From an uncultured Clostridia bacterium (GTDB lineage: Bacteria > Bacillota > Clostridia > TANB77 > CAG-508): a DNA stretch of 64,000 nt. Both the position numbers and the translations under genes were made by a program. Shown here in pieces: positions 37,460-40,775 of the stretch; positions within the stretch are counted from its first letter, which is position 1, and the number at the start of each line of letters is the position of its first letter. The notes beneath the pieces were generated by a model. The model was not told where the DNA came from and made no database searches. It was given only the letters and a program-made list of their open reading frames with translations. The DNA lies in contig CAKPLT010000006.1 of the NCBI GenBank assembly GCA_934167755.1, forward strand, positions 14,189 through 78,188, given 5' to 3'.

Positions 37460-37609
37460 TTATTCACATTCTATTTCTGCAGCGGTTATTGTATAATTAT
37501 ATACATATTTTGCATAGCTTATTGTACTTATATTAATTATTATAGTGAAGATTGATATTAGAATTAAAATAATTTGAATCATAATTTTTTTTATTTTTTC
37601 TGTTAACAT
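37460..37609 (-). CDS. Unannotated 49-aa ORF with a TasA/SipW-type-like signal peptide (mature peptide about 16 aa)
   Basis: Below the ORF-track size cut-off. Translation is MLTEKIKKIMIQIILILISIFTIIINISTISYAKYVYNYTITAAEIECE. Its ATG overlaps the TAA of the upstream gene (TAATG). It shares the ISYA(K/R)Y junction with the two upstream genes. Confidence 0.35.
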   Translation of the reverse strand: MLTEKIKKIMIQIILILISIFTIIINISTISYAKYVYNYTITAAEIECE

Positions 37610-38094
37610 TATATTTTCTCCTGTTCTGCTTTCACTTTTATTTGTATATCTTCTTTTTTATCTAATCTGACCTTATCTATATTTATATATATTATTTTTA
37701 TTTTGTAATTTTTCTCTACTCTTTCATTTGCATTTATTAAGATTGGTTCTGTTTTTGAGTTGTGCAATATAACTTGTTTTTCTTCATCATATAATTCAAA
37801 TTGTAAATAATCTTCAAAATTTGAAACAATTTCTATTGTATATAAAAAACTTATTTCACTTACATTTGTTTTATTAAAGTTTTTAATTGAAAACTCATAA
37901 AAACCTATATTATTTTCCTCATTTATTTTTATAATTTTTCCTTCTTCAATTTCTAAAATAGGGATAGCTATATCTTGCACAATATTTAAATTTTCTGTTT
38001 GTATATATCTTGCATAAGATATATGAGTTGAAAATAATAGCATATTTACTAATATTATTATAAAAAATTTTTTATTAGTTTCTATAATCTTCAT
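37609..38094 (-). CDS. Secreted protein with a TasA/SipW-type-like signal (THISYARY); paralog-like partner of 38098..38697
   Basis: 161 aa. Signal peptide ending ISYARYIQTE, beta-rich body, no anchor. Confidence 0.5.
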   Translation of the reverse strand: MKIIETNKKFFIIILVNMLLFSTHISYARYIQTENLNIVQDIAIPILEIEEGKIIKINEENNIGFYEFSIKNFNKTNVSEISFLYTIEIVSNFEDYLQFELYDEEKQVILHNSKTEPILINANERVEKNYKIKIIYINIDKVRLDKKEDIQIKVKAEQEKI

Positions 38095-38097
38095 AAA

Positions 38098-38697
38098 CTA
38101 TTGTGCTTGTACTCCTTTAGCTATTATATCAAATGAATAATCTAATAAAGAAGTTCCATCTTTTGTATCAATATTATCATTTTCTATTTTTGCTACATCT
38201 GTATTACCTTTTTGATATGGCCATTCCCATTTTATAGTAACTGTTTTACTCCTTTCGTTTGAAATACCTATATTTCCTTTTATAACTCCAATTTCATTAA
38301 GATTTTTGTAATTATTTCCATTATATGTAAACACTATATTGGTTGGCTTATTTACTTCGTTTACAAATTCTACTGTGTAATCAACAGCCACATCAGACCC
38401 AGTGGCATCAAGTGTTATTGAGAATTCTCCTGATGTACCTGGTGCAATTTTTCCATTTACTAATGTTGCTTTATTAGCTGTATTTCTTAATGTTATATTT
38501 TTGACTTCTTCTCCTGCATTTTTAGCTATTTTAAATGACCAATTTGCAATATCTGCACCTCCTGTTCCTTTTTCTTGTGACATGTATCTTGCATATGTAT
38601 ATCCTCCTGCTCCTGATAATAATAACATTATTAAAGTTATACATAATGATATAAATATTCCCCTATATTCTTTACTTGCTTTTCTTTCTTCTTTCAA
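38098..38697 (-). CDS. TasA/camelysin-like secreted protein (SipW-type signal peptide class)
   Basis: TTG start 8 nt after AAAGGAAG. Signal ...LLLSGAGGYTYARYMSQ, then IAPGTSGEFSITLDATGSDVAVDY, which resembles TasA/CalY-type fibre subunits. Confidence 0.5.
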   Translation of the reverse strand: MKEERKASKEYRGIFISLCITLIMLLLSGAGGYTYARYMSQEKGTGGADIANWSFKIAKNAGEEVKNITLRNTANKATLVNGKIAPGTSGEFSITLDATGSDVAVDYTVEFVNEVNKPTNIVFTYNGNNYKNLNEIGVIKGNIGISNERSKTVTIKWEWPYQKGNTDVAKIENDNIDTKDGTSLLDYSFDIIAKGVQAQ

Positions 38698-38729
38698 ATT
38701 TAATTACTTCCTTTCTTTATTTATTTTTA

Positions 38730-40031
38730 TTACATACCTGTAACTGGTAATTTAGGTATTTCAATTACTGGCACTATTTCTTCAACTTTAGGTTCTTCTT
38801 TTGGTATTTCTTCCACTGGTGGTTCCTCTGGCTGTTCATCAATATTAATTGTTACAATTTTATTGTTATAAATCTTAATATTTACCTTTTCATTCAAGCT
38901 TATATTTATTTGATGTAATTCCATATCTAAGGCATATCCATCTGGTGCTTTTATCTCTCTTATATAATATGTTCCTGGCATCAATTTTTCTAAAACAATT
39001 TGCCCTTGTTCATTTGTTTCTGCAATTCTAATAACTTTTTTATTATTATCTAAAATTTCAAATTTAGCTTTTTTTAGTACTTCTTCAGTATCTACATCTC
39101 TTTTTTCTATTATTATTTCTGTGTCATTTTTTTCATATTTTTGAATTATCTCAGTATCTACATTTTCATACGAAAACGCAGTTAATGCATAATCTTGTAA
39201 ATCTCCACTTGGAGCCTTTCCAAAAAATATTGGTTTGGTTTCCATTTGAGTTTGAATTTTTACCTTAAATTCTCCTGATTCTTCTAAACTTGATATTGGT
39301 ATTAAGATTTTAAAACTTTCGTTTGAATTAAATTCTCTTTGTTCTTCATTTTGTAAATTAGTAATTTTAGTTTCTTTTGGTTGATTATCTAAAATTAATG
39401 TAAACTTTGAAATATTAATATTACTCGTTAATTTAAATTCTTTTGAAATAAAGTTGTTTTCATTTTTATCAATTTCCCATTTTTCACTTTGTACTATTTT
39501 TACATCAGTATCATTACAATTTTCTGTTGAATTTCTTGCATTTTCCAGAATTGTTCTCATTGCATTTATTGTTCTAGTCCCTGCATCATTTATAGCAGTA
39601 TATTGTTCTAATCTTGTATTATATATATAGCAATATATTGCCTGTTTAGTTGCTATATATGCCTCCTGTTCATTAGCTGCACCTAATTGTTCTGGTTTCT
39701 TATATGGATATCCATTCACAATTACTCTCCACAATCCTAAATCTGTAAGCTTTCCTTGATTTGCCACTTCATATTTAGCAATATAGTCTCCAACTCCGTG
39801 GAGTTCTCTATTCAAACAATAAACTGGATATTCTTTTCCATTTTCTTGATACACCGCATGTGCTGTTTTTACAATTGTTTGATCTTTTTTTATAATCCTA
39901 TCAAAATAACCTTTCGTATATATCGTAATTTGTCCTCCTTCTTCTACCGCTTGTACTGTATTTATTAGTATTGCAATATTTAGCATTATAATTGTTAACA
40001 CTATTAATATTGTTTTTATAATTTTTTTCAC
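38730..40031 (-). CDS. Surface adhesin: thioester (TQXA-like) domain, SpaA/CnaB-type domain, P/E-rich stalk, then LPVTG at the extreme C-terminus
   Basis: The GTG start overlaps the sortase TGA (GTGA), after GAGGAGGAGG. Signal peptide present. PVYCLNRE, VNGYPYK and YIATKQAIY fit a Cys-Gln thioester domain pattern. LMPGTYYIREIKAPDGYAL fits a SpaA/CnaB fold. The protein ends ...IPKLPVTGM-stop. Confidence 0.6.
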   Translation of the reverse strand: MKKIIKTILIVLTIIMLNIAILINTVQAVEEGGQITIYTKGYFDRIIKKDQTIVKTAHAVYQENGKEYPVYCLNRELHGVGDYIAKYEVANQGKLTDLGLWRVIVNGYPYKKPEQLGAANEQEAYIATKQAIYCYIYNTRLEQYTAINDAGTRTINAMRTILENARNSTENCNDTDVKIVQSEKWEIDKNENNFISKEFKLTSNINISKFTLILDNQPKETKITNLQNEEQREFNSNESFKILIPISSLEESGEFKVKIQTQMETKPIFFGKAPSGDLQDYALTAFSYENVDTEIIQKYEKNDTEIIIEKRDVDTEEVLKKAKFEILDNNKKVIRIAETNEQGQIVLEKLMPGTYYIREIKAPDGYALDMELHQINISLNEKVNIKIYNNKIVTINIDEQPEEPPVEEIPKEEPKVEEIVPVIEIPKLPVTGM

Positions 40032-40627
40032 TGTTCCTCCTCCTCTTTTTCTACTGCTTGTATACATCTTCTGTATTCTGGTTGATTTTCTACACATGTT
40101 ATTAATGTTAACATATCTTCTTCTGTATTTTCTAAGAAATTCCAATCTGTATCTTTTATAATTCTGTTCTTTTTCACTTCATATGTTTTTTCAAATTCAT
40201 TATATTTATATCTAATTTCATCTCCTTCCTTTAATAATTTCAAATCTTTAAAATAATTAACATCGTATCCTCTATTATGTGCTGCAAGTCCAACATTACC
40301 AGCTTTTTTCGCTGTCTGTATAAAATGCCCTACATATTGATTTAAAATTTCTTTAGTAGTTCCTTCTTTAATATTTGCTACCAAATAAATTTTAGGAATT
40401 TCTATTTGCCAAATATCACTCTTTTCTGATAAATCTTCATTATCTTCTTTATCAAATTTTTCTGTATTTTCTGTTAAATTATTTGCATAAAAGTATTCCT
40501 GCTGATTTTTCATTATATTTTGTGAAATTTCTGTTTCAAGTTTATGTTGCTTTATAAATACTGATATTAATATAAAAAATATTGCAGTTAACACATATAA
40601 AATATGCTCTTTAGTAAATTTAAACAT
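40028..40627 (-). CDS. Sortase (transpeptidase), N-terminally membrane anchored
   Basis: GLAAHNRG (catalytic His), TLITC (catalytic Cys) and YRRCIQAV (Arg). Confidence 0.8.
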   Translation of the reverse strand: MFKFTKEHILYVLTAIFFILISVFIKQHKLETEISQNIMKNQQEYFYANNLTENTEKFDKEDNEDLSEKSDIWQIEIPKIYLVANIKEGTTKEILNQYVGHFIQTAKKAGNVGLAAHNRGYDVNYFKDLKLLKEGDEIRYKYNEFEKTYEVKKNRIIKDTDWNFLENTEEDMLTLITCVENQPEYRRCIQAVEKEEEEQ

Positions 40628-40720
40628 GCATTTACTATCACCTGCCTTTTATTAAATTGTTTTTTTGATTTTTTTCGAAAAAAAATTTGATTTAATATTT
40701 CTGAATTTAAATTCTATATT

Positions 40721-40749
40721 ATGTTATCATCCATTCTATAATTTGTCAA
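40721..40749 (-). promoter_or_regulatory. Sigma-A-type promoter of the sortase/adhesin operon
   Basis: Minus strand: TTGACA (40749-40744), 17 nt, TAACAT (40726-40721). Confidence 0.5.
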
Positions 40750-40758
40750 GAAAAATCG

Positions 40759-40775
40759 TTCGACAGTTTTCGACA
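40759..40775. promoter_or_regulatory. Two direct Spo0A-box-like heptamers 10 bp apart, just upstream of the sortase-operon -35
   Basis: TTCGACA at 40759-40765 and 40769-40775. The minus strand reads TGTCGAAAACTGTCGAA. Confidence 0.55.

Follow-up and report, generated by a model that had tools for sequence, protein, structure and literature searches.

A predicted Spo0A-controlled operon for a TasA-like surface fibre, a sortase and a tail-less thioester adhesin in uncultured gut Clostridia

Within a 64-kb stretch of DNA from an uncultured Clostridia bacterium of the human gut (the window), five minus-strand open reading frames (ORFs) from 40627 to 37460, counted along the window, form an operon for a sortase, a thioester-domain adhesin and three short proteins with hydrophobic N-termini, here designated P3, P4 and P5. 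We consider it probable that this operon is activated by Spo0A and provides a donor-strand fibre of the TasA kind, in which P3 would form the shaft, P4 a minor subunit and P5 the initiator strand, along with an adhesin processed by the sortase. As such, it would represent a cell-surface adhesion kit that phosphorylated Spo0A switches on as exponential growth ends. P3, P4 and P5 belong to a protein family of Gram-positive bacteria that has remained unannotated and most likely works like TasA, AbpA or the chaperone-usher pilins.

The ORF coordinates were verified. The sortase gene (40028..40627; 199 aa; PF04203, 77 bits) is followed on the minus strand by the genes for the adhesin (38730..40031; 433 aa; thioester domain, PF08341, 41.6 bits against a cut-off of 22; SpaA domain, PF17802, 69.5 bits), P3 (38098..38697; 199 aa), P4 (37609..38094; 161 aa) and P5 (37460..37609; 49 aa). 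In operon order, the gene junctions are an overlap of 4 nt, gaps of 32 and 3 nt and an overlap of 1 nt. The GTG start of the adhesin gene and the TGA stop of the sortase gene share the sequence GTGA, which is preceded by a AGGAGGAGG Shine-Dalgarno run, and the start of P5 is translationally coupled to P4 by the 1-nt overlap, with AGGAG upstream. Hence, the five tightly packed genes, their coordinates and the GTG/TGA overlap described in a first-pass annotation of this DNA are borne out by ORFs and spacing, and its assignment of a TLITC sortase and of a thioester-domain LPXTG-type adhesin is supported. No other sortase and no other LPXTG protein is encoded in the 64 kb scanned.

A profile scan of one genome per species revealed 152 genomes with a P3 relative, confirmed by tblastn, of which the best 80 were mapped. 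All of these 80 loci come from metagenome-assembled genomes (MAGs) of uncultured Clostridia, mostly from gut assemblies of humans, chickens, rabbits and deer; the chromosome of one relative comprises 1.55 Mb. Human gut metagenomes, among them Hadza samples, contain the identical P3 protein on 23 public contigs. When mapping the window proteins onto the retrieved clusters (given by L numbers), two arrangements become apparent. Type-1 loci (L001 to L021), representing about 15 species-level genomes with P3 identities of 44–78%, have the window-like order rsmH, ftsL, a divergent HD_5 gene, sortase, adhesin, P3, P4, P5, a 113-aa protein, M23, M50 and der. Type-2 loci (65 in number) encode P3, P4, a P3 paralogue (P3') and a long version of P5 in a cluster lacking the sortase, and their neighbourhood is different, as they are flanked by DUF3792 and SecDF-like genes. 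The core cassette of P3, P4, P3' and long P5 is present in at least 80 genomes of uncultured Clostridia, usually without a sortase. The five-gene arrangement and its motifs exceed chance, and the chance adjacency that the first-pass annotation had considered is contradicted by the recurrence of the order in these about 15 species-level genomes.

The hydrophobic N-termini of P3, P4 and P5 end in a common (S/T)-Y-A|(K/R)-Y junction, already noticed in the first pass and readable in the translations as GGYTYA|RY, HISYA|RY and TISYA|KY, respectively, with an aromatic residue at mature position 2. The segment GAGGYTYA|RY of P3 aligns with VGGGTWA|AF of TasA, and the junction is conserved across the homologues of all three proteins. 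None of the three matches a Pfam or NCBIfam family, including the NCBIfam model for the short SipW signal, and for P3 the same result was obtained in superfamily scans; hence, no unrelated well-known family turned up in Pfam or NCBIfam for the 199- and 161-aa proteins. Likewise, P3, P4 and P5 do not match the camelysin model PF12389 at E ≤ 0.1, none of 72 P3-superfamily members matches it, and scanning of ten large multidomain members against Pfam and NCBIfam did not give a family for the common domain. Searching PDB sequences with the profiles A1, A5 and A2 gave nothing meaningful. By hhalign, the A5 profile of the P3 superfamily could be aligned with a 28-sequence TasA alignment only over 20 signal-peptide columns at a probability of 33% (LLSGAGGYTYARY with LALVGGGTWAAFN). 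As the comparison with a single TasA also reached the signal junction only, classification of P3 as a member of the TasA family was rejected and the wording "works like TasA" is kept. The three proteins lack LPXTG and therefore do not qualify as subunits of a class C sortase-assembled pilus.

The P3 family is large. Besides 232 close homologues, searching 1.84 billion representatives with the P3 profile gave 4,455 clusters at E ≤ 1e-3 and 1,712 at E ≤ 1e-10 (clusters at 50% identity). Many members of the superfamily are proteins of 400–3,136 aa (P0205–P0307) that carry the P3-like domain at their very start; behind it come Listeria-Bacteroides repeats, internalin-like regions or a weakly TafC-like region. 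Large surface proteins may thus generally use the domain as an N-terminal module for attachment or assembly. P4 is distantly paralogous to P3 (hhalign probability 95.5%) and evolves fast, and the P4 homologue of cluster L062 shows weak, sub-threshold matches to the camelysin (PF12389) and TapA models (E 0.008 each).

Three lines of supporting evidence tie P3 and P4 to proteins of the TasA kind. In four related clusters (L062, L037, L047 and L059), a gene for a SipW-type peptidase is located between P3 and P4, with the L062 enzyme scoring 86 bits against a cut-off of 52 in the archaeal/SipW-type model TIGR02228. Moreover, fold searches were run with the AlphaFold2 models. The P3 model, a beta-sandwich carrying an NGKIAPGTSG motif (predicted local distance difference test, pLDDT, of 72; below 50 for residues 30–50), has Bacillus subtilis TasA (5of1) as top PDB match (probability 0.97, E 2.8e-3, template modelling (TM) score 0.32). 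For P4 (pLDDT 73), the archaeal bundling pilin AbpA (7ueg) ranks first at a probability of 1.0, and further matches at probabilities of 0.96–1.0 are CfaB, FimG/FimF, the Sulfolobus thread 7pnb in 13th position, Csu and PapA; TM scores versus AbpA and the thread are 0.41–0.43. All of these matched proteins, that is, AbpA, CfaB, FimG/FimF, the thread, Csu, PapA and TasA, polymerize by donor-strand complementation. The fold resemblance of P3 and P4 to donor-strand pilins is weak to moderate, lending support rather than proof. Finally, the 20 residues following the signal peptide are the least confident part of both models (pLDDT below 50), and in P3 this segment is at the same time among the most conserved, with G46, A51, W53 and F55 being invariant. 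A conserved segment modelled at low confidence is the expected signature of a strand that would fold only in the polymer. P3 is regarded as the putative major (shaft) subunit and P4 as a candidate for a minor or adaptor subunit. What the first pass suggested about a likeness to the SipW/TasA class is consequently retained for junction alignment, peptidase genes of relatives and fold matches, not for sequence membership of P3 to P5 in PF12389.

P5 differs from a complete subunit in that its signal peptide or transmembrane segment is followed by only about 16 residues (KYVYNYTITAAEIECE). At this position, L004/L021, L017, L018, L062 and almost every type-2 locus have a gene for a protein of 439–709 aa with the same start (for example, ...NTISFG|KYVFTYTQNAIELNIDRTPP...). 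The remainder of long P5 is immunoglobulin (Ig)-like and ends in ChW-like repeats (sub-threshold) or, in L062, contains a MucBP domain (50 bits); the protein looks like a tip adhesin joined to a donor strand. Accordingly, among the three TasA-like signal-peptide proteins proposed in the first pass, P3 and P4 hold up, whereas P5 is the retained signal peptide and putative donor strand of the 439–709-aa tip-like protein. The short version stops a few residues past the conserved KY.F.Y....AE(I/V).I strand. Its orthologues of 41–54 aa are kept open in 12 type-1 species at a DNA composition of about 25% G+C, and public gene callers have annotated P5 on 28 contigs. P5 forms below 60 aa are confined to sortase-bearing loci. 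In 71 of 71 sequences, the first mature residue is Lys. As TapA donates its N-terminus for starting TasA filaments (PMC10151520), P5 may be read as a donor-strand-only initiator or cap. In P3', the P3 paralogue lost in the window lineage, the cleavage motif behind the membrane helix is matched in just one of 62 sequences; by reason of this missing motif, P3' is a candidate for a permanent membrane anchor that would accept the last strand. The ancestral cassette could then be pictured in four parts, that is, tip, adaptor, shaft and anchor. Sortase, adhesin, long P5 and P3' are found together in L017, L018 and L021.

The sortase has an N-terminal transmembrane segment, the motifs AAHN, TLITC (with the catalytic Cys) and YRRC, and no C-terminal transmembrane segment. 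It matches TIGR01076 (62.5 bits against a cut-off of 39), whereas all class-specific NCBIfam models stay far below their cut-offs (SrtD-type 69.8/140, class E 68.1/160, class C 67.3/160 and class D 52/165 bits); the nearest solved structures are from Bacillus anthracis (2kw8) and Clostridium perfringens (4d70) at E of about 1e-10. The adhesin is composed of a Sec signal peptide, the thioester domain, a middle domain, a SpaA/prealbumin-like domain, a Glu/Pro/Val-rich linker and LPVTGM. Cys72 (YPxYC) and Gln130 (ATKQ), the putative thioester pair, are invariant in 12 aligned orthologues, and the TQXA model TIGR03934 gives a sub-threshold match (22.1 against 30.4). The C-terminus is KLPVTGM directly followed by TAA TAA, thus without hydrophobic stretch and basic tail. 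This LPVTGM-stop is present in 14 of 14 distinct type-1 adhesins, and among the 12 aligned orthologues the linker varies in length and sequence while the terminal LPVTGM is fixed. The sorting-signal models PF00746 and TIGR01167 are both matched by the L062 adhesin, not by the one of the window, and relatives outside the clade have tailed signals (LPQTG in L062, LPATG in L033 and L039). Invariance within the clade and normal sorting signals outside of it argue that the absent tail is a derived, selected feature and not an assembly artefact. Restoration of a tail by read-through or frameshift was rejected in view of the two consecutive TAA codons and of the wrong polarity of the P3 N-terminus (charged, then hydrophobic). 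A second lineage shows a comparable association, as in L062 a sortase and a thioester adhesin with six SpaA domains directly precede P3, SipW, P4, P3' and P5. Since L062 is an independent lineage, the association of a sortase/adhesin pair with the fibre cassette is recurrent.

Upstream of the sortase gene, the sequence reads TGTCGAA-aac-TGTCGAA-cgatttttc-TTGACA-17 nt-TAACAT, with a TG ahead of the −10 element. Two direct motifs of the Spo0A-box type (0A boxes; 40775..40769 and 40765..40759, minus strand), the proximal one ending 9 nt before the −35 element, thus precede a sigma-70-type promoter (40721..40749, minus strand; TTGACA 40749..40744, TAACAT 40726..40721). The promoter and its two boxes had been read in the same way in the first pass and are conserved in 13 aligned loci. 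There, the proximal box is TGTCGAA in most cases (TGTCGAT in two of the 13), the TGTC core of the distal box, the −35 hexamer and the TGnTAA.AT core are invariant, and, in the leader (40628..40720, minus strand), the palindromes GAATTTAAATTC (40714..40703) and TTTTTTTCGAAAAAAA (40684..40669) as well as the AGGTGAT ribosome-binding site are invariant or nearly so. The 0A boxes are conserved in 13 to 15 type-1 loci. Across type-1 genomes, identity over the 160 nt upstream of the sortase amounts to 64–83% compared with 66–77% within its coding sequence, and drops to a background of 50–65% in the intergenic DNA beyond. The leader does not match Rfam, and its RNA fold is no more stable than that of shuffled sequence (z = 0.29). 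Accordingly, a riboswitch or structured RNA leader was rejected, and the palindromes are probably DNA operators, that is, protein-binding sites for a regulator. As a speculation, the second of them, TTTTTTTCGAAAAAAA, resembles two overlapping degenerate 0A half-sites.

The heptamer TGTCGAA occurs eight times in the window against 1.6 expected, a number reached in none of 100 shuffles. An inverted perfect pair (30019–30042; TGTCGAA, 10 nt, TTCGACA) lies about 100 nt upstream of the operon for spoIIAA (STAS), spoIIAB (HATPase_c_2) and sigF (29915..28347), which as a textbook Spo0A target serves as in-window control for the motif. Further perfect boxes are located at 12172, 12998, 13826 and 49823. 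In 58 of the 65 sortase-less loci, a perfect TGTCGAA in the same orientation is found 75–320 nt upstream of P3, where 0.046 per region are expected. Both locus types have in common either the box-N9-TTGACA layout or a TGTCGAA-TTxT-G(T)CGATGAAAAGTT element (type-1 L004 and L018; type-2 L024, L041, L050 and L075). Spo0A-box control, as proposed in the first pass, is thus strongly supported by the conserved boxes in both locus types and by the spoIIAA control. From the presence of the boxes and the same layout in sortase-less loci, it follows that this control is likely a property of the fibre cassette and ancient within the group; the type-1 sortase and adhesin genes lie between the ancestral promoter and P3. 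The near-consensus housekeeping promoter fits activation at the transition to stationary phase better than late compartment-specific sporulation. Of the timing suggested in the first pass, stationary phase or entry into sporulation is hence supported by the housekeeping-type promoter with 0A boxes, in contrast to a late, mother-cell-made spore appendage.

Gene content, domains, conservation, promoter motifs and a weak to moderate fold resemblance are results of the analysis, from which polymerization, subunit roles, Spo0A binding and the sortase reaction are inferred. Combining these results, the following route is probable. Once a subunit has been exported via Sec and cut at the (S/T)-Y-A|(K/R)-Y junction, its conserved and flexible N-terminal strand would fill the incomplete beta-sandwich of the next subunit by donor-strand complementation, with P3 forming the shaft and P4 acting as minor or adaptor subunit. 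P5, contributing a donor strand only, would start or cap the fibre in the way the TapA N-terminus does for TasA. The ancestral cassette, still found in most relatives, would have comprised P3, sometimes SipW, P4, P3' as P3 paralogue with an apparently uncleavable membrane anchor, and a long P5 in which the donor strand is fused to Ig-like and sugar- or mucin-binding domains as tip adhesin. In the window lineage, sortase and thioester adhesin would have been placed between the Spo0A-box promoter and P3, P3' lost and P5 trimmed to the donor strand. The sortase would cut the adhesin at LPVT|GM for transfer to an amine acceptor, by default the peptidoglycan cross-bridge; as the usual membrane-retention tail is missing, another acceptor or site of action may apply.

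Several observations weigh against this interpretation. Mature P3 and P4 lack detectable sequence homology to TasA/camelysin and to any PDB chain, their fold matches have TM scores of 0.32 to 0.43 at E values of only about 1e-3, and CUB domains and the enterotoxin C-terminal domain rank close behind in the fold searches. In addition, tblastn with the L062 SipW over the 64 kb gave nothing better than E 4, in agreement with the first-pass statement that the cluster lacks sipW, whereas the clusters of four relatives carry one. In L062, the other sortase-linked cluster, a 0A box was not found; therefore, Spo0A control is not tied to the sortase. To our knowledge, every characterized sortase substrate has a retention tail, and we know of no sortase handling a tail-less LPXTG. 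A hidden fibre-like domain in the adhesin was not found by hhalign against P3 and P4, and with the adhesin being unrelated to them its joining the fibre is conjectural. Finally, L015 (6401–8161) and L020 (6472–8757) have kept the sortase and lack the adhesin, and in L010 (5711–6989) the adhesin is split by a stop or frameshift. MAG assembly errors are possible in these loci; otherwise, the sortase may have another substrate, or the sortase/adhesin pair may be dispensable or decaying.

Regarding the relation between adhesin and fibre, a possible, albeit rather doubtful, alternative is that one promoter serves two independent modules, a wall-decorating sortase/adhesin pair and a separate TasA-like matrix fibre, which would be co-expressed for a switch to an attachment or biofilm lifestyle without being in contact; the missing tail would merely lower the anchoring efficiency or yield a partly released adhesin. 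The full sorting signal of the L062 adhesin, with LPQTG, hydrophobic part and charged tail, suggests that ordinary wall anchoring is the ancestral state of such adhesins beside the cassette. In line with this alternative are also the lacking relationship of the adhesin to P3 and P4, the occurrence of the cassette without sortase in most genomes and the finding that a C. perfringens srtB mutant still made BsaA oligomers (PMC11580942). However, it leaves unexplained why the tail-less LPVTGM-stop is strictly conserved and why the pair separates P3 from the promoter of the cassette instead of adjoining the cassette. These two features could be accommodated by a covalent hybrid pilus, which we nevertheless judge unlikely. 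Here, the sortase would ligate the LPVT end to an amine of the fibre instead of the cell wall, most simply to the N-terminal Lys (alpha- or epsilon-amine) of cleaved P5, or to an amine of P3 or P4, and through the 16-residue P5 strand the adhesin would be held non-covalently at the tip of the donor-strand fibre, which would rebuild in trans the tip adhesin that the long P5 of relatives provides in cis. Invariance of the C-terminal LPVTGM in 14 species with a drifting linker, restriction of P5 forms below 60 aa to loci with sortase, the location of the translationally coupled sortase and adhesin genes inside the fibre transcription unit and the Lys at the start of mature P5 (71/71) all agree with such a linkage, and classical lipid-II-coupled sorting is less obvious without a membrane tail. 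Yet the P5 Lys is equally invariant in 60-odd sortase-less loci and is therefore not there for the sortase, so that it was discarded as evidence for a sortase nucleophile. Moreover, L017, L018 and L021 pair sortase and adhesin with long P5 and P3', L015 and L020 have a short P5 without adhesin, the association of short P5 with the sortase probably reflects a single evolutionary event, and with 67 bits the sortase stays far below the class C cut-off of 160. The adhesin-fibre linkage is a proposal.

Two further explanations concern the time and state of the system. That the operon encodes a spore-associated appendage or a fibre of the coat surface made during sporulation is likewise unlikely, although 0A boxes are present both here and upstream of spoIIAA-sigF in the same genome, class D sortase models are among the best, if sub-threshold, matches and TasA homologues are annotated as "spore coat-associated protein N". 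A class D sortase of B. anthracis is known for anchoring proteins in sporulating cells. The spoIVFA/FB neighbourhood pointed out in the first pass is likewise suggestive, in so far as the adjoining M23 and M50 genes are compatible with spoIVFA/spoIVFB. However, this synteny is limited to one clade, the 65 sortase-less loci being located elsewhere, between DUF3792 and SecDF-like genes, and was consequently dismissed as functional evidence. Furthermore, the promoter is sigma-A-like (TTGACA-17-TGnTAACAT), promoters of the sigma-E, sigma-K, sigma-F or sigma-G type were not seen, though no search aimed at them was made, and Spo0A also governs matrix genes in vegetative and transition-phase cells of B. 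subtilis. Highly improbable is a decaying remnant without working structure, in which the cassette is being lost in reduced genomes of about 1.5 Mb. Loss of P3' and truncation of P5 in most type-1 loci, the absent adhesin of L015 and L020 and the split one of L010, fragmentary P4 in L015 and L013 and the 1.55-Mb chromosome of one relative would be consistent with decay. In contrast, a P5 ORF of 41–54 codons has remained open and its KY.F.Y....AE motif conserved in 12 species at about 25% G+C, where stops arise easily. No variation is seen in LPVTGM, Cys72 and Gln130, conservation of promoter and leader equals that of coding sequence, and P3 is 44–78% identical across the clade with motifs intact.

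The Spo0A-activated donor-strand fibre with sortase-processed adhesin, which we favour, can be compared with several known systems. Like the tapA-sipW-tasA operon of B. subtilis, the cassette features a junction of small residue-any-Ala in which mature position 2 is aromatic, a putative major subunit accompanied by a minor protein that would start assembly through its N-terminal strand, a SipW-type peptidase inside the cluster of some relatives, Spo0A-dependent expression (here read from the 0A boxes) and TasA as top, if weak, fold match for P3. It is different in that mature P3 and P4 lack PF12389 homology, sipW is missing from the window, sortase and thioester adhesin are placed inside the operon and the TapA-like element is down to 49 aa. 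Furthermore, the 0A boxes at the promoter make Spo0A control look direct here, in contrast to the route via AbrB and SinI/SinR in B. subtilis. With pili of the SpaA/BcpA type, the operon shares a dedicated sortase beside an LPXTG protein with thioester and SpaA/CnaB-like domains, and a thioester adhesin at the fibre end is the known role of Cpa-like proteins such as Cpa of Streptococcus pyogenes. Unlike these systems, P3 and P4 lack LPXTG and a pilin motif, the sortase stays below the class C cut-off and the adhesin signal is without hydrophobic and charged part. Regarding chaperone-usher pili (Fim, Pap, CFA/I) and archaeal threads and bundling pili, the P4 model resembles FimG/FimF, CfaB, Saci_0406 and AbpA, and the inferred tip, adaptor, shaft and anchor would parallel FimH, FimG/F, FimA and FimI. 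Chaperone, usher and outer membrane are lacking, however, and assembly would be chaperone-free at the Gram-positive membrane.

A closer counterpart is the sipW-bsaA-bsaB-bsaC locus with srtB of C. perfringens, a clostridial TasA-like matrix fibre locus adjoining a sortase, with paralogous subunits in one operon and BsaB carrying LPXTG in most strains; according to the published model, donor-strand exchange takes place at the membrane with the signal peptide as temporary anchor (PMC7395162; PMC11580942). In contrast to the operon described here, the C. perfringens sortase is divergently transcribed, LPXTG is carried there by one of the TasA-like subunits, as part of an ordinary sorting signal, and BsaA subunits are locked together by an Asn-Glu-Lys isopeptide triad, whereas conserved Asn or Lys was not seen in the P3 donor segment. 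The NCBIfam models for SipW substrates of C. perfringens do not match P3 to P5. Relatives of BsaA and TasA often share operons with genes for LPXTG and SpaA proteins, signal peptidases and sortases (PMC11580942), and a 2026 preprint on AbpX describes a cross-domain TasA superfamily with donor strands bearing an aromatic residue at mature position 2 and with bacterial loci encoding a major subunit along with minor subunits and tip proteins, plus anchors of the LPXTG type, sortases, HD-GYP enzymes and Spo0A-like regulators (bioRxiv 10.64898/2026.01.04.697558). All these companions are seen here except the Spo0A gene itself, which was not searched for in the window, and the aromatic position 2 corresponds to (K/R)-Y here and A-F in TasA. 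Unlike AbpX-type loci, in which LPXTG anchors are predicted to be fibre-like and to co-assemble by strand exchange, the operon has a thioester/SpaA adhesin without tail. The AbpX signal peptidase has ten transmembrane helices, compared with a small SipW-like enzyme of 133–145 aa in the relatives of the operon. Consequently, the first-pass assumption that the combination of thioester-domain LPXTG adhesin, dedicated sortase and TasA-like subunits is undescribed does not hold, as the general design of a TasA-superfamily locus with sortase, LPXTG protein, HD-GYP enzyme and Spo0A has already been described (PMC11580942; bioRxiv 10.64898/2026.01.04.697558). In these two sources, we did not find the P3 subunit family, direct near-universal 0A boxes, a non-fibre thioester adhesin in the operon, the tail-less LPVTGM or a donor-strand-only mini-protein. 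Of the checks named in the first pass, profile searches and structure prediction gave the thioester and SpaA domains and weak TasA and AbpA top folds, not a TasA/camelysin profile match; the tail-less LPVTGM end, the origin of P5 and the position of sortase and adhesin between promoter and P3 go beyond that annotation.

In the surroundings of the operon, a gene for an HD_5/HD-GYP-type phosphodiesterase (40892–41827, plus strand) is divergently oriented, shares with the operon an intergenic region of 265 nt and is syntenic in all type-1 loci. The 113-aa protein (37042–37383, minus strand) has a C-terminal transmembrane segment and no Pfam or NCBIfam family, shows 63–89% identity in all type-1 loci and is always encoded between P5 and the spoIVFA/FB-like M23/M50 pair; being absent beside sortase-less clusters, it probably belongs with the sporulation genes rather than with the fibre operon. 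At a greater distance (18048–21461, minus strand), two large secreted proteins are encoded next to each other, one with a type I dockerin and SH3_3 (19752–21461) and the other with three cadherin-like beta-sandwich domains (18048–19739); this pair hints at cohesin-dockerin surface display in a small-genome gut bacterium. In L087 (1–6501) and also in L088, a 179-aa gene encoding only the Spo0A C-terminal domain (Spo0A_C) adjoins the sortase-less cassette, preceded in L087 by a serine recombinase and a DUF5906 gene, a setting that could reflect insertion of a mobile element into spo0A or next to it. Several sortase-less clusters are accompanied by large ORFs whose N-termini resemble type IV pilins (e.g., KGITLIALVITIIVLLILAGVSI; L022 1797–2885; L041 9402–11456; L056 10318–12429; L033 3714–5447). 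In C. perfringens, type IV pilus components are needed for secretion of one bsa-operon protein.

If the modules are merely co-expressed, the finding shrinks to a useful annotation of a new TasA-like family. If, on the other hand, the covalent linkage were true, the operon would specify the first pilus in which transpeptidation by a sortase is combined with donor-strand complementation, and the adhesin, with a detachable donor strand snapping into the tip of a TasA-like fibre, would be the first natural substrate of a sortase to do without a membrane-retention tail; the N-terminal P5 peptide KYVYNYTITAAE would be a candidate nucleophile. By its tail-less LPVTGM end, the adhesin is at odds with the textbook view that a hydrophobic, charged retention signal is indispensable for sortase substrates, and a P5 consisting only of a donor strand would be a naturally occurring minimal starter or cap for fibres built by strand exchange; both could serve protein engineering, as ligation tags and fibre-capping peptides, respectively. 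Having no Pfam or NCBIfam model and yet comprising 4,455 clusters, the P3 family may represent a major unnamed surface fibre of gut anaerobes, and the near-universal perfect 0A box provides a testable link between the master regulator of sporulation and surface attachment in uncultivated organisms.

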